DNA of 64,000 nt from Gemmatimonadota bacterium (GTDB lineage: Bacteria > Gemmatimonadota > Gemmatimonadetes > Gemmatimonadales > GWC2-71-9). Positions 25,547 to 63,532 of the stretch are shown here, piece by piece. The notes beneath the pieces were generated by a model. It was given only the letters and a program-made list of their open reading frames with translations. It was not told the DNA's origin and ran no database searches. The stretch covers positions 143,663 to 207,662 of the forward strand of contig JBDHAB010000002.1 in the NCBI GenBank assembly GCA_039588295.1, in the 5' to 3' direction. Position 1 is the first letter of the stretch; every line of letters begins with the position of its first letter. The position numbers were made by a program, and so were the translations under genes.

Positions 25547-26155
25547 CTACTGGATCCTCAGCTTCGCCCGGAAGTCACCAGATACGTCGACCCGACGAAA
25601 GACGTCCTGGGTCATCGAGACGTATGACAGGCGCACGGCGGAAAACGAGCCCTCGACGTACCCGTCCTCCATATTCGCGATCCGGAGTCGCAAACTCGAC
25701 TCGACGTCCTGGTGCACGCCAACGTCGTCCGTCAGGCTGAGTTGCATGGCAACACCAAGCTCGGGATCGTTGACATCGCTGAGGTCCATGTCGCGTTCCA
25801 CCAGATCGTACACGCTTGCCAGCTCCATTCTCCACTGAATGGCCCCACTCGGAACGGCGGTGACGATATTCACCTTGGCTGGATCCTGACCCAACGCCAA
25901 GAAGTACCGGTTTGCGTCGGGGAGTCGCATGGCCACAAACTCGACGTGCTCGAACTCGTAGCTTCGACCGTCGACGGCGAAGCGCACATACGTGTCGTTC
26001 CCCAGCTCCGCGCAGCCCAGCGCAATCGCTGTGAAGCACCAGACTGCAGATGTACGAAGGCGAACATCAGCCGCTGAGACCCCACCGACACATAATGTCT
26101 TCAAGCGCACAGGAACCTCCTCGCGATTGCTACGTGACCCTCGGTTCAGACGCAT
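25547..26155 (-). CDS. Probable lipoprotein, hypothetical (start uncertain)
   Basis: ALGC lipobox-like; beta-rich, ends GDFRAKL. Confidence 0.55.
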   Translation of the reverse strand: MRLNRGSRSNREEVPVRLKTLCVGGVSAADVRLRTSAVWCFTAIALGCAELGNDTYVRFAVDGRSYEFEHVEFVAMRLPDANRYFLALGQDPAKVNIVTAVPSGAIQWRMELASVYDLVERDMDLSDVNDPELGVAMQLSLTDDVGVHQDVESSLRLRIANMEDGYVEGSFSAVRLSYVSMTQDVFRRVDVSGDFRAKLRIQ

Positions 26156-28466: not shown

Positions 28467-29315
28467 CTAGTGACGTCGGCTCCAGCCACGGGAGTGCTTC
28501 ACGTGCTTCGGCGCGTCGAACTTCGTGCGGCTCAACACCTCATCCAAGTCCTCGACCTCGAGGAACGGACCGTAGTTGAGGTAATCCGTGCCCGATGGGA
28601 CGGTGAGGGTGCCGTCGGGGAAGATCATGACGTATAGACGGTCGAGCGTCTCGTGGGTGAGCCAGTTGATGGGAAATGCATGAAATGACGTCTCCACCAG
28701 CCGACGCAGCGTGTCGAAATCCGCGTCGGACACCACCAAGGTGTCCCACTCGACTTCGCTCATCGCCCGTGGGAACGCTTGGAACAGGTTGTAGAACAAA
28801 CGGTTGGGGATATGCTCGGCACGCTCATCCAACAAACGCACAATCGCGGGCACATCTCGCAGGTTATGCAGCGTCACGGGAGTGGCGATCTTCACGTCGA
28901 TCGCGGGGAAGTCGGCCAAGATGTCCAGGTCCTGCATGACGCGCGTGAAATGTCCTTCCTTCTTGGTACGGCGCGAGACGGGTTCCGATGCGCCGTCCAG
29001 CGGCAGAGAGATCAGGTCGATCGACGCGCCATATTCGACCAGGAACTCACGCGTCAGCTCGTCACCGGTCGTCGAGATCGCGACCTCCAGACCCACTTCT
29101 TTTGCCACTTCCACGAGTGATCCGATATCCTTGCGCAGCAGTGGGTCGCCTCCGGTGAACACCACGCGCCGTGCGCCGACTGCCGCAATCTTGCGCACAA
29201 TCTCCACAGCAGTCGACGTATCTACGGGGTGCTCGAACCCCTGCGGCCCCCAGCAGTAGGTGCACTCCTGATTGCACTCCGCGGTAACGTGGAAATCGAT
29301 GGTAACGACCGACAC
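28467..29315 (-). CDS. Radical SAM enzyme, viperin-like
   Basis: CNQECTYC, FTGGDP; viperin-like blocks FHVT, YGASIDLI, KIATPVT..N, LFQ, SDADF, YVMIFPDG, FD..H; no SPASM cysteines. Confidence 0.8.
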   Translation of the reverse strand: MSVVTIDFHVTAECNQECTYCWGPQGFEHPVDTSTAVEIVRKIAAVGARRVVFTGGDPLLRKDIGSLVEVAKEVGLEVAISTTGDELTREFLVEYGASIDLISLPLDGASEPVSRRTKKEGHFTRVMQDLDILADFPAIDVKIATPVTLHNLRDVPAIVRLLDERAEHIPNRLFYNLFQAFPRAMSEVEWDTLVVSDADFDTLRRLVETSFHAFPINWLTHETLDRLYVMIFPDGTLTVPSGTDYLNYGPFLEVEDLDEVLSRTKFDAPKHVKHSRGWSRRH

Positions 29316-33098: not shown

Positions 33099-34166
33099 GT
33101 GAACCAGAACCACAGCGACGAGCCCCGTCAGGCCGACATGTATCCGGCTAGGCCACCGATGCGCTTGGGACTCGCCATTACAGAGCACTGCAATCTCCGC
33201 TGTCCACATTGCATCCGTGACGACGTGACGACGGTTCGCTCTCTCGAGACCGAGCTGATAGCCTCAATCGTGGATCAGGCGAAGGCGCTGTACGGCTCCG
33301 TGGTCGTCAGTCTCACCGGGGGAGAACCTCTACTTCATCCCGAGTTCGCAAGGATCGCTGATATCTTCGTGGAGCGCGCCGTTCCGTACCGATTCGTCAG
33401 CAACGGATGGCACGTGAACCGGATCGCGCGGATCGTGCGTCGCTGCGCGCCTCAAGCGGTGCGGCTGAGCCTCTCCGGTGCCACGCCAGAGACCCATGAT
33501 GCCGAACGTGGCGACGGGAGCTTCCATCGGGTACTCCGGAGTCTCGCCGTGCTCACGAGCGAGCAGATTCCTTGCGACCTGTCGATGGTGATCGATCGGC
33601 GCAATCGACACGAACTCGAGGTGGCGGCCGACCTAGCGGAGTCATTGGGATGTCTCAGTATCAGCTTCATTCTGCCCCAACCGACGCCGGGGAGCGCCGA
33701 GCGGGACAGCGATCTGCCTCCAGATGCTTGGTTGCCGACCAAACGTGCGCTGGAGAACCTGGCACAAGAACCCGGACGGCAGTCACGAGTGAGGATCGAC
33801 TACGGTTATCCATTCGACGGCCCCGAGACTCCGTGCGAGACGTTCGCTCTCCAAAGGATCTACGTGGACACGCGTGGGCGGGTTTGCACGTGCTGTCAGC
33901 TGTCGAACTACGGCTTTACGGAGACGGAAACGGTCGCGGACTTACACACCACATCTCTTGCCGAGGCGCATGACCTCTACGTTACGCGGCTCGAGGCATT
34001 GCGCCAAGCACAGCAGCCAGACTCCGCAGCACCACACCTGAGCGATCCGTTTCCGTGTATCCGGTGCGCTCGAGCGAGCGGAAAGCTCGGATGGCTGGCG
34101 GACTTCCCCCAGTCCGCATGGCACGGAGCGGCACGCCAGCCAACCAAGGTCACGCCAGCCGCATGA
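33099..34166 (+). CDS. Radical SAM enzyme with SPASM/Twitch-like C-terminus; candidate peptide maturase
   Basis: CNLRCPHC, TGGEP, SNG; C-terminal PC...GRVCTCC...PCIRC; no N-terminal RRE. Confidence 0.88.
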   Translation: MNQNHSDEPRQADMYPARPPMRLGLAITEHCNLRCPHCIRDDVTTVRSLETELIASIVDQAKALYGSVVVSLTGGEPLLHPEFARIADIFVERAVPYRFVSNGWHVNRIARIVRRCAPQAVRLSLSGATPETHDAERGDGSFHRVLRSLAVLTSEQIPCDLSMVIDRRNRHELEVAADLAESLGCLSISFILPQPTPGSAERDSDLPPDAWLPTKRALENLAQEPGRQSRVRIDYGYPFDGPETPCETFALQRIYVDTRGRVCTCCQLSNYGFTETETVADLHTTSLAEAHDLYVTRLEALRQAQQPDSAAPHLSDPFPCIRCARASGKLGWLADFPQSAWHGAARQPTKVTPAA

Positions 34167-34549
34167 AGCGTTTGCCGCAAATCGCCGTCGGATGTCTTGC
34201 GGCCGTTCGGACCCCGTTCTGGATTCACGGGCCACGTCTGGAGACGCTCTTGACCGGGCCGGCAGATTCCCACCAACGGTCCGGGAGTCCCGGAGTCGCG
34301 ATCAGGGTGTCTCGACTAGCCCTGCGGATGCTGGGCCGGCTCCCGCTGTTGCCCTGGCGGAACACGTGCCTCTATCGAAGCGTCGCCGAGTGCTTGGTGC
34401 TTCGGAGCTACGGAATCGGGTGCCGGTTACAGGTGGGGGTCAAGCGTGCCTCGTCGGCCCCGGACTCGATCGACGCGCATGCGTGGGTCCTGCGAGATGG
34501 TGAGGATCTCGGCAGCGCCTCACACACGCTCCTTCGACCCAGCCCGTGA
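34163..34549 (+). CDS. Lasso-peptide B2-type leader peptidase (transglutaminase-like Cys protease)
   Basis: TCLYRS, LQVGV, AHAWV; ATGA-coupled to the radical SAM gene. Confidence 0.88.
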   Translation: MKRLPQIAVGCLAAVRTPFWIHGPRLETLLTGPADSHQRSGSPGVAIRVSRLALRMLGRLPLLPWRNTCLYRSVAECLVLRSYGIGCRLQVGVKRASSAPDSIDAHAWVLRDGEDLGSASHTLLRPSP

Positions 34550-34589: not shown

Positions 34590-35105
34590 TCAGTACTCTA
34601 TGCTGGGGCACTCAACGCGGCGAGCGAGCACCGGAGCTGTTCCCGTAGAGGGCTTTCCTTCCACCCGCTCGTCGGTGAAGGACGTGATTTCGCCCCTCAG
34701 ATCCTGGCCCTCGATATGAAGCGTCATACTCACACCGGCCAGTGCTCCGGGGTGACCGATGAACAGCGAATCTCCGGCCACGAACCGCCAGTAGTTGAAC
34801 GGGTGATCCCAGGCCCGACCCTCAGTGATACTGTGCGCCACGAACACGGTGCCGTACTGTTGCACTAAGCTCGGCCAAACCGTCAGCTTCGCGGTGTCGA
34901 GCTTGACGGTGGGTGCACTACCCCAGGCGGCGCGTTGCCGCTCTGCCTCCGGTCCCGGTTCGCCGGACCAGAACTCCAACTCATAGCAGCCCGCGACCTG
35001 TTCCGGAAGCGGCAGGCGATCTCGTTGGGTGTTCGACGCAGAACAGCCTCCGACGGCCGTCCACAGTGCCGACAGCATGAGCGAGGCAGACCTTGCTGCG
35101 TGCAT
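34590..35105 (-). CDS. Lipoprotein, hypothetical
   Basis: Lipobox VGGC; AGCYEL ... ARRVEC. Confidence 0.65.
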   Translation of the reverse strand: MHAARSASLMLSALWTAVGGCSASNTQRDRLPLPEQVAGCYELEFWSGEPGPEAERQRAAWGSAPTVKLDTAKLTVWPSLVQQYGTVFVAHSITEGRAWDHPFNYWRFVAGDSLFIGHPGALAGVSMTLHIEGQDLRGEITSFTDERVEGKPSTGTAPVLARRVECPSIEY

Positions 35106-35118
35106 CCCGAGCCTCTGG

Positions 35119-36246
35119 CTATTCGAGCACGCCCGCGGCCCGGCGCGGCGCGCCCGTGCCGGTGGGTATCTCGACCGTCGCACTTGGATCCGCGGGGTCG
35201 AGCCAGCGAAGGGTGGGCGTGTTCCCGATCCATGCCGTGTACACGATTCGACCGTCCGGCAGCCACGCAGGCTCGCCGTCGGCGCCCGGACGATCGGTGA
35301 GCTGTGTCAGAGCCATGGTGTTCAAGTCCAGGAGGAACAGCTCGGTGTCTCCGGTGCTGTCCGATGCAAACACGACCGATTCGCCGTCCATACTCCATGC
35401 CGGCTCCACCGCTGCCGTGTTGCTGAGGACGAGGACTGTGGGCGTCCCTCCGGGGATCTGTAGGGTGAAGACGTCGGCCGTGCCGTTCGTGGTGGAGACG
35501 AACACCAGCCGGTCTCCCGAGGGACCCCAGCTCGGCGATGCCTCCACCGACCCGCCAGTTCCGAACCCTACCGTGACAGCCTGAGCGTTGCTCCCGTCTG
35601 CCTGCACGGTCCAGAGCTTGAACACTCCGGTTGGGTTCGCGGTGTAGGCGATCTGACCACCACCCGGCGTGAGGGCTGGCTGTATCTCACTGTCGGCGGT
35701 GTCCGTCAGCCGGACAGCCGGGCCACTACCATCCAACGGCACCGAGTAGAGCTCGGCGTTGCCGTCCCGGAAGCTGGTGAAGACGATGGTCCCTCCCGCG
35801 GCCGTCGGGTCCTCATCATCAGCCGCTGCGTCGGTGAGAGATTCGAGACCGTCTCCATCAAGGAACATGCTGTAGATATCACGGTTGCCGTTCAGCAAGA
35901 GATCGAATACCACTCGCGGCGGGAGAGCGATTTCCAACACACGTGTACCCATCACGATGCTACGAGCCTCGATCTGCGCTTCGGCTTGGAGCGTGACGGT
36001 TCCCGCACTCAAGAACGTGACTCGGCCTTCGGAGAGAAACTGCAGCAGGTTGGGTGGTTCTGCGGTCCACTCGATTAGGGAATCGGCGACCGGCTCGCCC
36101 TCGAACACGACGCGCACCTGCGCCGTCGAGCTCCGCTCGATGCGACCGTCGATCTCGATCTCCAGCACAGGAACAGGGCCCGTCGCGTCACAGCTCGTCA
36201 GTGCGGCTGTCAACGCGACAGGCCCGAGAACGCGCCATGGCGACAC
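35119..36246 (-). CDS. Lipoprotein with Ig-like domain and TolB-like propeller
   Basis: Lipobox LTSC; RDGNAELY, SPSWGPSG, EPAWSMDG, EPAWLPDG. Confidence 0.85.
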   Translation of the reverse strand: MSPWRVLGPVALTAALTSCDATGPVPVLEIEIDGRIERSSTAQVRVVFEGEPVADSLIEWTAEPPNLLQFLSEGRVTFLSAGTVTLQAEAQIEARSIVMGTRVLEIALPPRVVFDLLLNGNRDIYSMFLDGDGLESLTDAAADDEDPTAAGGTIVFTSFRDGNAELYSVPLDGSGPAVRLTDTADSEIQPALTPGGGQIAYTANPTGVFKLWTVQADGSNAQAVTVGFGTGGSVEASPSWGPSGDRLVFVSTTNGTADVFTLQIPGGTPTVLVLSNTAAVEPAWSMDGESVVFASDSTGDTELFLLDLNTMALTQLTDRPGADGEPAWLPDGRIVYTAWIGNTPTLRWLDPADPSATVEIPTGTGAPRRAAGVLE

Positions 36247-36260
36247 GAGTGGCCCTCGGC

Positions 36261-38045
36261 TTACCGCCGCCGGTCGGGACGAAGCAACGTGATTCGGCCC
36301 TCCTCATCCACCCCGTAGAGCGGCCCCTGCCACATATCATCGAGGAGCTGCAGCTGGGTGGCATCTGCCACAGGCGCTCCGAGGGCGGGCGGTGCGCAGA
36401 ACGGGCAGGTCCATGTATCCCAGCCTGAGGCGGCAACCGTGTAGCCCATGTCAGCTAGCGCTTTCACGGTCACCTCGCTGAGTGGTATGGGAGTCATGGG
36501 AGCTTCAATGAAGCCCGTCATGAGCTCGTCATTCAGCACCGACTCACGCCAGTGCCCGCACCTTGTCCCAGGACCAAAATCATTCTCGACCGGCACCTTG
36601 TTTCCAACGTAGGTGCCACCACCGTTGCTGTTGAAGGCAGCAATCGCGAGCGGCCCGTTGAAGTAGGGGTCAGTCGTGAGCGGGGGCGGCGGGTCATCCG
36701 CAACCGGGAAGCAATCAGTCAGTAGGCCATTGTCGTCGGACAGCAGTCCCATGCTGATCCACCTAGACGTGCCCATGCCCAGCACGTGCCCCATCTCGTG
36801 CAGGACCACGTCTCCAAACTGATTGTTCGCCTCCATGTTGGCCACGTCTGCGGTGTCGAACGTCATGACTCCATAGATCGGGAGCCCGCCCGTTGTCCGG
36901 ACAAAACAGGGACCCGCACTCCCGAGGATATTCCCGGGACCGTCGATACTGTCGAGCACAGCATTGATCGCCAAGTCATCGACGATCTCATCGATCGGCA
37001 TCCCACACTCGTTGCCGCCCCACGTGAGCAAGACGGGAGATAGATCCCCAGTGATGAGGCTCTCCCAACGAGCCGCGGCACTATTGAAGGCGGCCTCTTG
37101 GCTCGCCGTCATGGGAGTCAGGAAGTGAAGCTCGATCTGAAAGCCCGCAACGAAGGGGTTCACGGTGATGCGCGAGGTCCCGTCGGCCTCTGGGCCGCCG
37201 GTCGACCCGATAATGTCGACCACCCCGTCCGACACAGCCGTGACCACGCCCGTGCTGGGATCAACGCTGGCGATTGACGGATCTGAACTCGTCCACGTGA
37301 CTGTGCCGCCAATGTCCCGATCGACGACATCACGGACCGTCGCGCTCAACGGAATAGTCGCCCCACCGACAGTCGTGAACCCCGAACCCGGGGTCACATC
37401 GACATATCCGTTCTCACCCCACACATCAGCATCGACGAAGACGGTGAATCCGAACGTGGTTACGGAACTGGGCACGTCCCATATCCACGTCTTCGGTGAA
37501 GTGGTGCCGTTCGCCGGAACGTATTCGAGATACTCAAAATACGGCTGGTTTGATCCGGTGAAAGTCCCGGTCCCATCCGCGTTATTCACCGTAACCGTAC
37601 CCGTTCCGCTCGTCACGTTGGGTCCGGTGTGGTGGAACACTCTGACTCCGGTCGTCGTGATCCCCCCGTCCGGACTGCCCAGCCCCTGAGTGATGAGGTT
37701 TGTGACTGTGACGTCGGCTTGGAAGAACTGCGACCCGTCGTAGCTCACACTGCTCGACGTGAGCGTAACATACTGATTCTGGCCACCGAGAATCACCCGT
37801 TGCGGACCCGGTTCGGTCTCACCAGCGACCACTGAACTCGGCCCGCACGAGATCTCACCCGCTGCCACGTGCGCGGTACAGGTTAACGACGCGACGACAT
37901 TCCGGTTGCGGGCAGGTTCAGTGACTTCTTCCTTCGTCACTTCCTCCGGAGAGGTCACGGGTATGTCGTCCATGCACGCCACGACCAAGAACGGCAGCGC
38001 GAGGAAGACGATGAGGCGATTCACGGTCGCTAGGTTGCCGCGCAT
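36261..38045 (-). CDS. Lipoprotein: Ig-like (Big_2) domain plus leishmanolysin-like (M8) Zn metalloprotease
   Basis: ATG 38045 with GGAGGG RBS; lipobox VVAC; VTWTSSDPSIASVD; HEMGHVLG, GHWRE, ELMTG Met-turn. Confidence 0.85.
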   Translation of the reverse strand: MRGNLATVNRLIVFLALPFLVVACMDDIPVTSPEEVTKEEVTEPARNRNVVASLTCTAHVAAGEISCGPSSVVAGETEPGPQRVILGGQNQYVTLTSSSVSYDGSQFFQADVTVTNLITQGLGSPDGGITTTGVRVFHHTGPNVTSGTGTVTVNNADGTGTFTGSNQPYFEYLEYVPANGTTSPKTWIWDVPSSVTTFGFTVFVDADVWGENGYVDVTPGSGFTTVGGATIPLSATVRDVVDRDIGGTVTWTSSDPSIASVDPSTGVVTAVSDGVVDIIGSTGGPEADGTSRITVNPFVAGFQIELHFLTPMTASQEAAFNSAAARWESLITGDLSPVLLTWGGNECGMPIDEIVDDLAINAVLDSIDGPGNILGSAGPCFVRTTGGLPIYGVMTFDTADVANMEANNQFGDVVLHEMGHVLGMGTSRWISMGLLSDDNGLLTDCFPVADDPPPPLTTDPYFNGPLAIAAFNSNGGGTYVGNKVPVENDFGPGTRCGHWRESVLNDELMTGFIEAPMTPIPLSEVTVKALADMGYTVAASGWDTWTCPFCAPPALGAPVADATQLQLLDDMWQGPLYGVDEEGRITLLRPDRRR

Positions 38046-38170: not shown

Positions 38171-38191
38171 AAAAAACAGCCCGGTGGGCCG
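38171..38191 (-). terminator. Intrinsic terminator after the small peptide gene
   Basis: CGGCCC-ACC-GGGCTG-TTTTTT, 12 nt after the TAG. Confidence 0.65.
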
Positions 38192-38203
38192 GATTCGACC
38201 GAC

Positions 38204-38377
38204 CTAGAAGACGCTGCTGCCGCCGCCCGGGTTACCGGTACCGGGGATCGGACTCCCAGTCTGCAGTGTGAGATCGGTGAGCCTCGGCAACTCTCGAAGC
38301 TCCGGCACGACCCATGGCTTTCGACGTCGCCCGCTACCCTGTGTTGCGACCTGTGCCACATCGTCGTCATGCTGCAT
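38204..38377 (-). CDS. RiPP precursor peptide with lasso-type leader (57 aa; not in ORF track)
   Basis: Manual translation MQHDDDVAQVATQGSGRRRKPWVVPELRELPRLTDLTLQTGSPIPGTGNPGGGSSVF; GGAGG RBS; W22xxP25xL27...T37. Confidence 0.8.
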   Translation of the reverse strand: MQHDDDVAQVATQGSGRRRKPWVVPELRELPRLTDLTLQTGSPIPGTGNPGGGSSVF

Positions 38378-38521
38378 GACGAGCCTCCAGCAGGATACTG
38401 AGGCTTACATATGCACCACCGGTCTCTGCGCGTCAAGCGCGTGTCGGGGGCACGCCGCATCTCCTCGATCGCCGCTGCATGCACATGAAGGCCGCCGCCT
38501 CAGGCTCCCACCCACCACGAC

Positions 38522-38577
38522 TTGACACGCGACCCCACTCCACCAATATTCCCCATATGAAAAGAATTTTTCGGATA
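38522..38577 (+). promoter_or_regulatory. Promoter (TTGACA) plus candidate BlaI-family operator 1
   Basis: TTGACA 38522-38527; quasi-palindrome TGAAAAGAATTTTTCGGATA 38558-38577. Confidence 0.55.
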
Positions 38578-38584
38578 CACGCCC

Positions 38585-38965
38585 ATGACTGATCCGGCCA
38601 GCCTGAGCCGTCGCGAGCGGGAGATCATGAACATCGTCTACCAGCTGGGCGAGGCCGGGGCCGCCGAAGTCGCCCGGCGGATGGCGGACGATCCGGGCTA
38701 CGACTCGGTGCGGGTAACGCTCGGCATTTTGGAGAGAAAGGGCCACGTGAAACATCGGAAGGACGGCCGACGAAATGTCTATTATCCGACCGTCCCTCGC
38801 GAACGGGCGACGAAGAATGCCGTCAAAAACCTTCAGAAAACGTTCTTCCGCGGGTCTCCGTCCAAGGCGATCCTGACCATGCTGGACATGTCCTCCGCCC
38901 GACTCACTCAAGCCGAGCTGGACGAGATCGCCCAGTGGATCGAGAAGGAAAGGAAGTTCAAATGA
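38585..38965 (+). CDS. BlaI/MecI/CopY family repressor
   Basis: LSRREREIMNIVY, YDSVRVTLGILERKGHV, TFFRGS. Confidence 0.93.
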   Translation: MTDPASLSRREREIMNIVYQLGEAGAAEVARRMADDPGYDSVRVTLGILERKGHVKHRKDGRRNVYYPTVPRERATKNAVKNLQKTFFRGSPSKAILTMLDMSSARLTQAELDEIAQWIEKERKFK

Positions 38966-40671
38966 TATCGTACCTGGCCGCGTCGATCGCCGCCGACCTC
39001 CTGCTCAAGGCATCCGTCGTCCTGCTGGTCGCGTGGATCGCCACTCGTTCCCTCTGGTGGACCTCGGCCGCTATCCGGCACGCGATCTGGTGCCTGGCCT
39101 TCCTCGCCCTCATGGTTTTGCCGGCGCTCGAGCGGGTACTGCCGTCCTGGGGACTTGACTCGCTGGTGAGCCAACAGACCGTTGCTCCCAGTGAGACCGC
39201 GTCGCCCACCGTACCCGTCGTGGCCGAGGTGGCGGTATCCGCGCAGGTGCCCCCTGCGCCCGCGCCGCCACCGGCTGCGCGGCCTCCAATCGAGGCACTG
39301 CTGTTCGGTGGGCTTCTCCTTTGGATGGGAGGCGCCGCCCTGATCCTCGGGCGGCTCGCGTTGCATGCCCGTCGTGCCTCGCAGCTCACGGCTCGCGGTT
39401 CACCGGCGAGTTCCGAGCTCATGCGCAGTCTCTCGGCAGCTTCCCTCGCGTTGGGCGCCCGTCGACGGATACGCGCCGTCGTGAGTAACGAGATCCCGAT
39501 CCCCGCGTCGTGGGGCATCGTGCGTCCCGTCATCCTGCTGCCCGCCGGCGCCGAGTCGTGGCCCCGGGAGCGACTCCACGCGGTGCTCACCCACGAGATC
39601 GCGCACATCGCGCGGCACGACTACGTCCTCCATCTTCTGGGCGAGTTGGCCCGCGCGTTGTACTGGGTGAACCCGCTCATATGGATCGCCGCACGACGGA
39701 GTGCGATGGAGCGTGAGCGCGCCTGCGACGACGTTGCCGTCCGATCGGGCGTCGAGCGGGATGCCTACGCATCGCGTCTCCTCGAGATCGCGCGTCTGCA
39801 ACTCTCGCCACCGGCCGCTACCGGCGCGCTCGCCATGGCCGAACGCTCTGGCCTGGCCGAACGCGTACGCGGGATTCTCAATCGGACGACGAACCGCTCA
39901 CCCGTGGGCGCCGCTCGGCTCGCGGTCATCGCAGTGGCCGCGGCACTCGTCGCCGTCCCGGTCGCCGCGTTCCAGATCACCCAAGACCGTCCACCTTCAA
40001 TCGCACAGTTGCTCGAGGATCTGAAGAGCGACGACGTCACCGTTGCCCGTCGTGCGGCCTGGTGGCTCGGCGAGCGCGAGGACTGGAGCACCGTGGATGC
40101 GGTGATTGACGCCATTCGTCGAGGCCATCCGGACGTTCAGCTTGCTGCCGCCTGGGCCCTAGGCGAGATCAAGGATCCGCGCGCCATCAACAGCTTGGCC
40201 GAGTTGCTCGACAGCGGCGATCCGCTGCTTCGAGAGATGGCAACGCTGTCGCTCGGCGAAATCGAGAGTCCCGAGGCCGTGCCGACCCTGATAGCCGCGT
40301 ACGAAGCCGACGCCACGCTCGGTACCGCCGTGATCTGGGCGCTGGGCGAGATCGATTCCGATGAGGCGGAGGCAGCGCAGTACCAGACCGCGAAGGAGCT
40401 GGGGCGACCGCTCGGCACGCACGAGCAAGTGTGGATCGGCCCGCTGGACGTGAAATGGGACGCCGAAGTGTCGCAAAGCGCATCGCAACTGATCCGCGCA
40501 CTGCAATCGTCATCCACGGCAGCGACCCGTCGTCTCGCCGCACGCGATCTCGGGCTGCTCGGCGAGTTCAGCGCCGTCGACCCCTTGCTCGACGCCATGC
40601 GCGACCCCGATCCCATGGTGCGCTCGATGGCGGTGTGGGCGTTGGACGAGATCAACCCGTCGAGGAAGTAA
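38962..40671 (+). CDS. M56 (BlaR1/MecR1-like) metallopeptidase with C-terminal HEAT repeats
   Basis: SAAIRHAIW, HEIAHIARHD, YWVNPL, ERACDD; AAWALGEI-type repeats; ATGA-coupled. Confidence 0.92.
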   Translation: MISYLAASIAADLLLKASVVLLVAWIATRSLWWTSAAIRHAIWCLAFLALMVLPALERVLPSWGLDSLVSQQTVAPSETASPTVPVVAEVAVSAQVPPAPAPPPAARPPIEALLFGGLLLWMGGAALILGRLALHARRASQLTARGSPASSELMRSLSAASLALGARRRIRAVVSNEIPIPASWGIVRPVILLPAGAESWPRERLHAVLTHEIAHIARHDYVLHLLGELARALYWVNPLIWIAARRSAMERERACDDVAVRSGVERDAYASRLLEIARLQLSPPAATGALAMAERSGLAERVRGILNRTTNRSPVGAARLAVIAVAAALVAVPVAAFQITQDRPPSIAQLLEDLKSDDVTVARRAAWWLGEREDWSTVDAVIDAIRRGHPDVQLAAAWALGEIKDPRAINSLAELLDSGDPLLREMATLSLGEIESPEAVPTLIAAYEADATLGTAVIWALGEIDSDEAEAAQYQTAKELGRPLGTHEQVWIGPLDVKWDAEVSQSASQLIRALQSSSTAATRRLAARDLGLLGEFSAVDPLLDAMRDPDPMVRSMAVWALDEINPSRK

Positions 40672-61654: not shown

Positions 61655-61774
61655 GTGTTCGCCCTACGTAGGGTGGGCGGTGGGGGATTCAGGGGTTGGG
61701 GGCATCCGGTGCGGGGTTGCCTGTCCCCGCGCAGGGGGATACGGTGAGTAAGGTAGAGACGTCGTAGCGTCGTA

Positions 61775-63532
61775 GTGCCTTCAATCTTCTCTCATCGAGC
61801 CAAGCGCCCACGCGTCGGCCGTTCCCGGGCCACGAGTCGGTTCCCAGCCAGGGCTGCTGTGCTCATCCAGTTCGTCGTGGCCGTGGCACTTGCCACACCT
61901 GGTGCCGCACAGACCGTTCGCGGTGAGTTGGTCGAAGAGCAAACCCACACCTCGATGGCCGGCGCCTTTGCCCTGCTGCTCGACACGGCCGGGGTCGAGC
62001 AGGCTCGCGCCATGACCGATGCGCTCGGCCAGTTCACGCTGCGCGCGCCTCGGGAAGGGCGGTATCGGTTACGGGCCGTCGCGGTCGGCCGGGCGAGTTG
62101 GACATCGGACCTCGTCCATCTCGCGGCCGACAGCACGGTTGAGCTCCGCATCGAGATGTCGAGACTCGCGGTAGCGCTGCCCGTGTTGGTAGTCGAGGCC
62201 GATCGGGACTGTCGGGTGCGGCCGGAGGCCGGGTTTGCGGCGGCGCAGCTGTGGGTGGAAGCACGCAAGGCGCTCGAGGCAGTGGTCTGGACCGAGCAGC
62301 GGGGGATGCTGCGCCATCGGACTGCCAAGTACACGCGCCGACTGAACCCGCGGTCGCTTGACGTGCTCGAGCAAGAGATCTCCCGACGCGAAGGCGTGTA
62401 TCAGGGGAGCCCGTTTATCCCCCAATCGCCGACGCACCTCGCGGAATGGGGGTACGTGCAGGAACTGCCGAGCGGCGAGTGGTCGTTTGATGCACCGGAC
62501 GCCAACGTCCTCCTCTCCGACGACTTCGCGGACGTGCACTGCTTTGCCGTTGCCGAACCCGATCCCCGACGTCCCGACCTTGTCGGACTGGCGTTCGAAC
62601 CGGTGCGCCATCGAGAGGTGGCCGACATAGACGGGGTCCTCTGGCTGGACGCCGAGAACGCCGAGCTCCGCCATCTCCAGTTTCGCTACACGGGCATGCC
62701 GGGCGTGTTACGGGAGGTAGACTCGCGACTGATTGGCGGGCGCGTGGACTTCCTGCGGCTCCCGGACGGTCCTTGGGTCGTGGCGCGGTGGTGGATCCGT
62801 ATGCCACAGGTTGGGCTTCGCGCACCGAGGCCGGGACAGTACGGCCGTCAGCCCGTGCTCGTCGGTATCCGAGAACAGGGGGGCTGGGTGGAGGAGGTCC
62901 AGACGCTCCGCGGTCGAGCGTTGTGGCAGGCGCCGACGGCAATGCTGAGAGGCCGCATCACATGGCGCGACGCTCCACTCGAAGGTGCCAACCTCGTGCT
63001 CGTCGGGGCGGAGCGGGCGACTCGGTCGGACGGTGACGGCCGGTTCCAGTTGGACAGTCTCGTTCCCGGCCGCTATGTGCTCGTGCTCGATCACGAAGCC
63101 AGCCCTCCCTCAATTCAGATCCAGCCACCGGCACTCGTCACGGTGGGCGCGATCGACACGATCACGCTCGATCTCCGTCTCCATGGCCCGAAGGACATCC
63201 GGGCCCGCACGTGCCCTCAGTCGGACGCCGACCCGGTGACGGGGATGGTCGCCGGACTCGTGCGCGATGGCACGACCGGGCACTTGCTCCCTGACATGGT
63301 GGTGTCGATCACGTGGCAACGGGTGAGCGGCGCCGGCGAGGTGCTGCGGGTCGAGAACCTCGGAGTTACCGCGACGACCGACGAGCGCGGCTATTACGCG
63401 ATCTGCGGCCTTCCCATCAATGTGCTCCTCCACGTCCAGGCGGAGAGTGAGACGTTCCAGGGGCCGGCGGCGGAAACGCGAATTGGCGCCGAGCTCGTGC
63501 GACGCCAGGACCTGGAACTGACCCCCGGGTGA
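61775..63532 (+). CDS. Exported protein with three carboxypeptidase-regulatory-like domains (start uncertain)
   Basis: TDALGQFTL, SDGDGRFQL..L.PGRY, TDERGYYAICGLP; APDANVLLSD.F. Confidence 0.8.
   Translation: MPSIFSHRAKRPRVGRSRATSRFPARAAVLIQFVVAVALATPGAAQTVRGELVEEQTHTSMAGAFALLLDTAGVEQARAMTDALGQFTLRAPREGRYRLRAVAVGRASWTSDLVHLAADSTVELRIEMSRLAVALPVLVVEADRDCRVRPEAGFAAAQLWVEARKALEAVVWTEQRGMLRHRTAKYTRRLNPRSLDVLEQEISRREGVYQGSPFIPQSPTHLAEWGYVQELPSGEWSFDAPDANVLLSDDFADVHCFAVAEPDPRRPDLVGLAFEPVRHREVADIDGVLWLDAENAELRHLQFRYTGMPGVLREVDSRLIGGRVDFLRLPDGPWVVARWWIRMPQVGLRAPRPGQYGRQPVLVGIREQGGWVEEVQTLRGRALWQAPTAMLRGRITWRDAPLEGANLVLVGAERATRSDGDGRFQLDSLVPGRYVLVLDHEASPPSIQIQPPALVTVGAIDTITLDLRLHGPKDIRARTCPQSDADPVTGMVAGLVRDGTTGHLLPDMVVSITWQRVSGAGEVLRVENLGVTATTDERGYYAICGLPINVLLHVQAESETFQGPAAETRIGAELVRRQDLELTPG

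Follow-up and report, generated by a model that had tools for sequence, protein, structure and literature searches.

A conserved Gemmatimonadota peptide with a lasso-type leader is probably the substrate of a radical SAM RiPP system that lacks a cyclase

The stretch of DNA analysed here (the window, 64,000 nucleotides from a Gemmatimonadota bacterium) contains a 57-codon open reading frame that a first-pass annotation had read as a precursor peptide with a lasso-like leader and a core able to form neither a lasso ring nor a thioether. This raises the question of whether the reading frame is a gene and which enzymes would act on its product. We conclude that the peptide most likely supplies the starting material for a Gemmatimonadota peptide product, undescribed so far, that is modified by enzymes. 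We consider it probable that it is the substrate of a cyclase-less, RRE-dependent radical SAM RiPP system of this phylum, a judgement that concerns the logic of the pathway and not its exact chemistry.

A conserved family of short peptides

The exact peptide quoted in the earlier annotation was recovered on the minus strand, ending in a TAG stop codon (38206-38204), and the GGAGG ribosome-binding site assigned to it was indeed found 6 nt 5' of the ATG. The features of the gene are as follows.

38388-38384, minus strand: GGAGG ribosome-binding site (sequence; spacing to the ATG 6 nt)
38377-38204, minus strand: precursor peptide gene, 57 aa (open reading frame, family of 338 clusters, coding-type substitution pattern)
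38264..38377, minus strand: leader, residues 1-38 (family conservation and lasso register; predicted cleavage site)
38207..38263, minus strand: predicted 19-aa core (Thr/Ser at +2, Ile/Val-x-Gly with Ile44 as core residue 6, terminal motif of the S/T-V-F type)
38171..38191, minus strand: terminator-like hairpin and U6 (6-bp hairpin at 38191-38177, then T6; particular to this copy)

Purine-rich stretches likewise lie upstream of the starts of four paralogs. The peptide carries no signal peptide. Its comparison with Pfam and NCBIfam models gave no family match, and NCBIfam models run against it together with six homologues gave zero matches.

Scanning the 160 contigs of the source genome for the motif revealed five paralogs (on C2, C7, C9, C20 and C57), in which the N-termini vary and the C-terminal 36 residues are conserved. 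A weak sixth match, at 61710-61826 of the window, was attributed to chance. In a protein search, 52 of 52 candidates matched, and those named by the source are hypothetical proteins. Weak matches (E > 0.001) from a further search were left out of account. A profile built from 34 diverse copies recovered 338 representatives (clusters at 50% identity) at E ≤ 0.001, 131 of them at E ≤ 1e-10. The best 150 of these 338 comprise 130 free peptides, 14 peptides fused to longer proteins and 6 off-pattern members that were left out (two unrelated giant repeat proteins and four near-pattern variants); counts out of 130 given below refer to the free members of this set. By name, 28 of 30 loci from the genome collection belong to Gemmatimonadota, and the other two carry no phylum in their titles.

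The annotation had proposed conserved homologues and the dN/dS ratio as a check, and both spoke for the gene: the family includes syntenic copies in the same genus, and synonymous change far exceeds amino-acid change. Over the 19-codon block of 62 distinct DNA copies, mean pS was 0.61 and mean pN 0.25, the latter lowered by the choice of the copies by amino-acid pattern. Identity at third codon positions in these copies was 0.43, compared with 0.72 and 0.80 at the other positions. Judged from these comparisons, the reading frame is a real gene of a large conserved family.

The claim of a terminator stood only in part. A 6-bp hairpin followed by T6 does lie 12 nt past the stop codon, but it is not a conserved design feature, as neither the four paralogs nor the syntenic same-genus copies have the U-tract. 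The fold has a z-score of −1.98, with 9 of 200 shuffles equally good, and 8 terminator-like sites in 18 kb compare with 9.1 ± 3.4 in shuffled sequence, so that the hairpin alone is not beyond chance. In family copies followed by a radical SAM gene, the start of that gene often lies 7-35 nt past the precursor stop.

The leader shows a variable N-terminus and then the pattern W(-17) P(-14) L(-12) P(-8) L(-6) T(-2) L(-1). All 130 free members have Leu(-1) and Thr/Ser(+2), and 125/130 have Pro(-8); these residues were not imposed by the search pattern, yet they are favoured by the profile search. Within the core, Ile/Val-x-Gly occurs in 124/130 free members (Ile in 111, Val in 13), with the Ile/Val at core positions 3-9 and at position 6 in 88 of the 124. 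An S/T-V/C-F/I/V motif lies near the C-terminal end in 108/130.

As had been stated, Asp, Glu, Cys, Trp, Tyr and His are all absent from the core in the window. The lack of Asp and Glu is particular to this copy, since 73/130 free cores have one of them somewhere (29/130 at core positions 7-9), and the case against a lasso peptide therefore rests on the missing cyclase described below. Trp, Tyr or His occurs in 11/130 free cores, and Cys is absent from 122/130, the remaining 8 having two. Among the modifications that had been suggested, pyroglutamate formation lost ground because Gln1 is found in just 85/130 free cores and is not conserved, and Asn chemistry because Asn is not conserved across the family. 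Chemistry at a free terminal Phe was weakened too: the peptide ends in Phe in 85/130 members, its C-terminus is extended in 45/130, and the fused forms continue into a hydrophobic stretch. Since the fused cores have no free end at this Phe, chemistry that needs a terminal carboxylate probably plays no central part.

Two kinds of variant core were observed. In the two-Cys cores (for example L058:3429-3563, L062:1967-2101 and L056:635-754), one Cys replaces the Val before the terminal Phe, and a disulfide or thioether variant is possible. A divergent branch (L137:9573-9818, L138 near 10645 and L139:3-308, with a radical SAM enzyme 38-40% identical) has longer cores with Tyr at +2, in which I-x-G and a terminal Phe-containing motif are kept.

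Linkage to a radical SAM enzyme and a cluster divided between contigs

Among 301 genomes of the phylum, the peptide was found in 24 and an orthologue of the radical SAM enzyme in 26, with both in 23; the three genomes with only the enzyme carry a 38-40% identical form with a divergent precursor adjoining it. The gene that follows 65 distinct precursor copies encodes a radical SAM enzyme in 28 cases (plus one frameshifted), a beta-sandwich lipoprotein in 18, a fused lipoprotein in 7, a TolB-like protein in 3, an RRE in 2 and an unrecognised product in 6. Many loci are short, which makes these neighbour counts lower bounds, and related genomes share genes, so that neither the co-occurrence nor the locus counts are independent. 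In the window, the partner genes and domains are the following.

33159..34166, plus strand: radical SAM enzyme with a twitch-type C-terminal domain (NCBIfam/Pfam matches, orthologue co-occurrence, alignment, model)
34163..34549, plus strand: lasso-type B2 leader peptidase (NF033537, 50.1 bits against a cut-off of 33; Cys and His motifs intact)
34590..35105, minus strand: small lipoprotein-like gene with a predicted start (no family match)
35119..36246, minus strand: TolB-like beta-propeller lipoprotein (PD40 repeats)
36261..38045, minus strand: lipoprotein with lipobox Cys, beta-sandwich, Big_2 and M8-type HExxH metallopeptidase (PF01457 and PF02368 over cut-off)
37419..37898, minus strand: family-specific N-terminal beta-sandwich domain of this lipoprotein (alignment of 46; model pLDDT 89)

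After the precursor come the beta-sandwich/Big_2/M8 lipoprotein gene, with its putative start at ATG 38045, the TolB-like lipoprotein gene and the 34590..35105 gene. The last of these has 63-75% identical matches beside precursor loci L042/L063 and L069 of the same genus, and a TolB-like match lies within 8 kb (≤8 kb) of 29/65 precursor copies, a few of these matches being possibly unrelated propellers. The radical SAM and B2 genes are on the opposite strand and converging, 3.7-5 kb from the precursor; the start of B2 overlaps the stop of the radical SAM gene, and its Cys and His motifs are also kept in the orthologues.

The cluster is split in the source genome (G000), where an RRE, an HprK-like kinase and a PF14907 nucleotidyltransferase lie together on another contig, C35. 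The RRE is a stand-alone PqqD-family protein (C35, about 25570-25857) that is closest to lasso RRE models (NF033530, 59 against a cut-off of 70), and the Walker A, DD and DxD motifs are intact. Whole cassettes, to which RRE, B2, HprK-like kinase and PF14907 nucleotidyltransferase are added, were found in loci L046, L070, L129, L133, L142 and L143. Compared with a second cassette on contig C159, the C35 genes were the better match to the cluster orthologues for the RRE in 38/38 loci, the kinase in 32/32 and the nucleotidyltransferase in 20/27; by this measure the assignment of the nucleotidyltransferase to C35 is weaker than that of the other two. The dispersed genes, as well as the tie to lipoproteins and its in-frame fusions, go beyond the first-pass annotation.

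The second RRE/HprK-like kinase/PF14907 cassette (C159:8383-18831; L032, L038-L040) also holds S24-like, ferritin-like and membrane genes and two Asn-synthetase-like genes, and no precursor was identified in it.

The arrangement in the source genome counts against the proposed system, as the cluster extends over two contigs and the radical SAM-B2 pair is inverted relative to the precursor. The copy in the window could thus be the orphan of a disintegrating cluster, no longer processed, a reading to which the division between C2 and C35 and a related genome that keeps the peptide gene without the enzymes would lend some weight. In that genome (G001; L003 and L105; same genus, 96% complete), the precursor-lipoprotein pair is present and a search for the radical SAM enzyme, B2 and the nucleotidyltransferase found none, which may reflect either an orphan or an assembly gap. 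An orphan in the window is nevertheless very unlikely, because all the enzymes are present with intact frames and motifs, and the five paralogs keep the same leader while their N-termini vary.

Two suggestions about individual components were rejected. B2 did not prove dispensable, since it occurs elsewhere in 4/5 genomes tested, and neither did the nucleotidyltransferase, homologues of which occur elsewhere in two genomes whose cluster is without one.

Other genes of the window were also noted. A BlaI/CopY-type repressor gene and a gene for a BlaR1-type M56 peptidase with HEAT repeats (38585-40671) are divergent from the precursor, and a sigma-70-like site (38522-38550) and a weak operator-like match (38406-38415) are present. 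For scoring we used TACA-NN-TGTA, which we take to be the BlaI operator box. Control of the precursor by BlaI was discarded: the near-match lies 38 nt upstream, but the window has 7 matches against 4.15 expected, which is not significant, and blaI is a neighbour in 1/39 precursor loci, the window's own. A second radical SAM gene (28467-29315) has the prokaryotic viperin model as its best NCBIfam match (82.5 bits against a cut-off of 180).

Comparison with lasso and other RiPP pathways

If the core starts at Q39, residues W22, P25, L27, P31 and T37 fall at -17, -14, -12, -8 and -2, which bears out the lasso-like register noticed earlier. Lasso leaders have YxxPxL at -17 to -12 and Thr(-2) (PMC10368454; here and below, papers are cited for the passages drawn upon). 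The leader in the window differs from the lasso consensus in having Trp for Tyr(-17) and Pro for Gly(-8), and its register is family-wide. Both lasso pathways and this system have an RRE (B1) and a B2 leader peptidase. The likeness is closest to the phosphorylated lasso clusters (pseudomycoidin psm, Bradymonas bsf and paeninodin), which share with it the Thr(-2) leader register, a stand-alone RRE, a transglutaminase-like B2, an HprK-like kinase and an NTP_transf_5 protein. Unlike them, this system has no macrolactam cyclase, its core in the window has no ring Asp/Glu, a radical SAM enzyme and lipoproteins are its partners, and no ABC exporter was recognised in the loci viewed.

Two Asn-synthetase-like queries for the cyclase found no match in the loci of the 65 precursor copies. 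Five genomes were searched overall for PF00733: full-length matches were absent from G086 (99% complete) and G315 (97%), both of which have the system and gave short partial matches only, and were found away from the cluster in G156, G098 and G282. We also considered a lasso peptide whose ring is closed by a cyclase from another part of the genome, for instance the product of one of the Asn-synthetase-like genes of C159; with the lasso cyclase model these genes reach 193 and 213 bits against a cut-off of 525. The lasso-type leader, RRE, B2, kinase and nucleotidyltransferase all suit such a peptide, and the C159 gene that scores 193 bits is without an N-terminal Cys and adjoins another RRE. This score is far below the cut-off, however, and also below the gene's own asparagine synthase score; in addition, the RRE of C159 is the poorer match in 38/38 loci, the core in the window has no Asp/Glu, no locus gave a cyclase match, and G086 and G315 manage without a full-length PF00733 protein. 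These observations leave this alternative hardly any probability, and we regard it as largely refuted. With no cyclase in the fetched loci and Cys in only 8/130 free cores, the earlier view that the peptide forms neither a lasso nor a thioether held up.

Other known systems resemble this one in part. The SynChlorMet, GeoRSP and HPr-rel-A cassettes (TIGR04248-51, TIGR04302-03, TIGR04352-53) likewise have a radical SAM enzyme, a PqqD-type RRE and an HprK-like protein, but every component of the present system scores far under their cut-offs (ScmF 98.7 against 400; HprK_rel_A 36 against 200), B2 and lipoproteins are added, and the precursor fits none of their models. The radical SAM enzyme matches that of mycofactocin at E 8e-24, but with 84.4 bits against a cut-off of 265. 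The MftA precursor ends in Val-Tyr. The Val-Phe found here shares with it a conserved terminal Val-aromatic pair; the extension of the C-terminus in 45/130 free members and in all fused forms argues against a mycofactocin-like decarboxylation of a free terminal residue. Sactipeptides and ranthipeptides need a core Cys as thioether donor, and this core has none. Including the epipeptides and DAG-RiPPs discussed below, the system appears to fall outside the lasso, sacti/ranthipeptide, epipeptide, mycofactocin, SynChlorMet, GeoRSP, HPr-rel-A and DAG-RiPP classes. By analogy, it would work like a phosphorylated-lasso pathway up to leader removal.

In the published literature we found no description of this gene set or layout, although large radical SAM RiPP data sets may list the family; one supplementary file each of PMC10288494 and PMC12710340 gave no match to Gemmatimonadota or to the leader motif, and the large data sets of these papers may likewise list it. 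RRE-Finder reported about 300 lasso-type RREs with a radical SAM enzyme and no cyclase, which it counted as false positives (PMC7470986), and a survey of marine Gemmatimonadota gave automatic lasso calls in 29 genomes, with no detail in the passages drawn upon (PMC11316326). The present system would be a concrete example of lasso-type RREs beside a radical SAM enzyme without a cyclase. It is also a candidate for a new class of RiPP, found in a phylum that is seldom cultured, and its parts (precursor, radical SAM enzyme, RRE, B2, kinase and nucleotidyltransferase) are defined and can be cloned.

Possible chemistry of the core

In the pathway that we propose, binding by the RRE would be followed by the kinase, the nucleotidyltransferase, the radical SAM enzyme acting at I-x-G and, finally, the cut by B2. 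As in lasso pathways, the RRE (C35) would bind the W-x-x-P-x-L leader and present the core to the enzymes, and B2 (34163-34549) would cut after Leu38, with Thr37 as the -2 residue; leader cleavage by B2 has a precedent (PMC10885120). More tentatively, the HprK-like kinase might phosphorylate Thr2 of the core or else the pair of serines ahead of Val-Phe, and the phosphate might then be capped by the nucleotidyltransferase, like the hexose in pseudomycoidin. BsfK phosphorylates core Ser3 with the help of an RRE (PMC10368454), and PsmN is needed for the hexose on phosphoserine in pseudomycoidin (PMC6993621). By analogy with these proteins, phosphorylation of Thr2 is our leading guess beside the epimerisation of Ile44 considered below, and the peptide would offer a simple candidate substrate for the nucleotidyltransferase family PF14907. 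Co-variation between Thr/Ser(+2) and the kinase was tried and rejected, because the Tyr(+2) branch keeps the kinase motifs (two of three intact, one frameshifted late); Thr2 is thus not the sole candidate site. The product would be a linear, Gly-rich, modified 19-mer made together with its partner lipoprotein, and could serve as a ligand or signal co-produced with the lipoprotein, or in the gating of export.

Besides the SAM-binding motif, five C-terminal cysteines of the radical SAM enzyme (Cys226, Cys245, Cys246, Cys300 and Cys303) are invariant in 28/28 aligned sequences, a number that would allow one auxiliary cluster and one spare Cys. The model of the enzyme (pLDDT 90.7) generally matches SPASM/twitch folds: SuiB (Z 25.3, rmsd 3.1, 288 aligned), SkfB (23.8), anSME (22.7) and BlsE (22.6), and lower down EpeE (Z 19.1, rmsd 3.7, 267 aligned, 16% identity) and TigE (18.9). 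The top Foldseek match was BlsE (E 2e-13). This search with a predicted model does not single out epimerases. The C-terminal domain profile gave 0 matches among solved-structure sequences at E ≤ 10, and matches of this domain to the twitch family were weak (4/12 members).

In the epipeptide enzyme EpeE, Cys222 is an auxiliary-cluster ligand. EpeE returns H through Cys223 when it epimerises Val and Ile (PMC13012085, PMC5682303, PMC8326336), and in SPASM/twitch enzymes the two residues after an auxiliary-cluster ligand face the substrate (PMC10288494). If Cys245 is a ligand here, the two residues would be Cys246 and Gln247, and Cys246 would lie at the active site, since the loop after the ligand faces the substrate. 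The enzyme (33159-34166) could then take the alpha-H of Ile44 in I-x-G, and Cys246 could give an H back from the other face to yield D-allo-Ile. We put such an epimerisation of Ile44 by way of the spare Cys246 at somewhat below an even chance. It draws on the likeness to epipeptides, namely a radical SAM enzyme with one putative auxiliary (twitch) cluster, a candidate spare Cys and conserved Ile and Val in a short core. EpeE is nonetheless described as leader-independent, while here an RRE, B2, a kinase and a nucleotidyltransferase belong to the system. Nor is the enzyme orthologous to EpeE (EpeE/YydG, TIGR04078, 24.4 bits against a cut-off of 300), and a conserved Asp matching EpeE Asp210 was not found in the aligned sequences at the spacing that we presume for it.

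The same system could also carry out an oxidative reaction (-2 Da), such as a cyclopropane on Ile/Val, a Thr/Ser C-O ether to an alpha-carbon or a Gly-centred crosslink. Two crosslinking enzymes, SuiB and SkfB, head the fold matches, TigE is matched with Z 18.9, and the conserved core residues are Thr/Ser, Ile/Val and Gly. Motifs of cyclopropylglycine and aliphatic-ether RiPPs are TIGSVS/TVGG and TQQ. We regard oxidation as possible, if rather doubtful: the fifth Cys, invariant and next to the active site, agrees with a redox-neutral return of H, there is one auxiliary cluster at most, and the variable spacing from +2 to I-x-G (core positions 3-9, with 88/124 at 6) is awkward for a fixed ring. 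Less probable still, and in our view improbable, is that the radical SAM enzyme acts on a sugar or nucleotide added by the kinase and nucleotidyltransferase and leaves the peptide backbone untouched. Foldseek ranks BlsE (Z 22.6) first, an enzyme whose substrate is a nucleoside sugar, several twitch enzymes (BtrN, NeoN and SpeY, for example) have sugars as substrates, and nucleotidyltransferase homologues are present even in genomes whose cluster is missing one. Against this, the gene directly after the precursor is that of the radical SAM enzyme (28/65) and not that of the kinase or nucleotidyltransferase, and I-x-G is kept in the divergent branch despite an otherwise different core. The small share of probability left over goes to other chemistry. 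As proposed here, the radical SAM family would act on cores without Cys or, mostly, aromatic residues.

Accompanying lipoproteins and the fused forms

The beta-sandwich domain is common to the lipoproteins that accompany the precursor and to those fused to it. Its best match among solved structures had Z 9.0 (rmsd 2.9 over 115), and Foldseek returned nothing at E ≤ 0.001, the weak leads being CBM2/CBM3-like with no pilin among the matches listed. Lipobox-type signals were found in 9/9 beta-sandwich proteins of the source genome, in which all five precursor copies adjoin a beta-sandwich lipoprotein gene (four upstream of it and one downstream). The domain was detected in 27/301 genomes: 21 belong to the 24 that have the peptide, and the other 6 do not have it. 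When five of these six were searched again with profiles, no radical SAM orthologue and no convincing peptide appeared (one partial match, E 0.002).

In two genomes the peptide and the lipoprotein form a single protein: G315 has a row of four lipoprotein genes and G136 a row of three, about 800-860 codons long (one ends at a contig edge), in which leader and core are followed, without a stop codon, by 9-16 hydrophobic residues, a lipobox-type Cys and the beta-sandwich. Neither genome has a free precursor copy at E ≤ 0.01, and in G315 the whole enzyme set adjoins the fused genes. Six further fused proteins were found outside these two sets. The core precedes the hydrophobic stretch in 14/14 fused members among the best 150; the fused members have no Lys or Arg between the predicted cut and the lipobox Cys, and a conserved internal start codon is absent from the four junctions examined at the DNA level. 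In a midpoint-rooted tree built from 59 beta-sandwich domains, a single branch (support 95/45, present in 94% of bootstrap trees) separates the 19 fused domains from the rest. This grouping, with its long internal branches, suggests that fusion arose once and was kept through many duplications; it looks derived. The RR before Trp22 was also considered as a possible twin-arginine signal and set aside, as the hydrophobic stretch lies ~35 residues later.

The DAG-RiPPs also join a RiPP substrate to a signal peptidase II signal and are modified in the cytoplasm before export (PMC13056109). In DAG-RiPPs the part that is modified lies beyond the lipobox Cys and carries the lipid, whereas in the present fused forms the leader and core come before the hydrophobic stretch and would leave with the signal peptide. 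The same paper calls lasso-type or N-terminally cleaved RiPPs likely incompatible with a signal peptide (PMC13056109), a view that the fused forms contradict, and they would tie RiPP enzymes to lipoprotein biogenesis. A radical SAM enzyme that modifies a protein, through thioethers, has been described (PMC13692751).

It is possible, though we would not count on it, that the modified core is part of, or a stand-in for, the lipoprotein signal peptide, with free copies acting in trans for the adjoining lipoprotein gene. If so, the enzymes would rework the cytoplasmic end of the signal peptide on 800-residue lipoproteins, giving one modified peptide per lipoprotein that either gates export or is released as a signal or ligand. 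In a stricter version, the peptide would be a handle for lipoprotein biogenesis and not a released product, its processing gating or marking export in cis (fused) or in trans (free). The fused members, with the core ahead of the hydrophobic stretch and lipobox Cys and no conserved internal start, are consistent with such a handle, as are the two genomes with fused copies only and the 5/5 source-genome copies that adjoin a beta-sandwich lipoprotein gene. We nevertheless judge this version unlikely, because the domain also occurs in 6/301 genomes without peptide or radical SAM matches, the free lipoproteins carry ordinary signal peptides, and the fusion appears to have one origin and looks derived.

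Two further arrangements of lipoprotein and secreted-protein genes were observed. Tandem secreted-protein genes with a common N-terminal motif lie past precursor-lipoprotein pairs at C20:18135-21539, L045 and L141. In G140 and G295, the two largest genomes with the system, the beta-sandwich domain is greatly expanded (12 and 7 matches), with tandem arrays among the copies.
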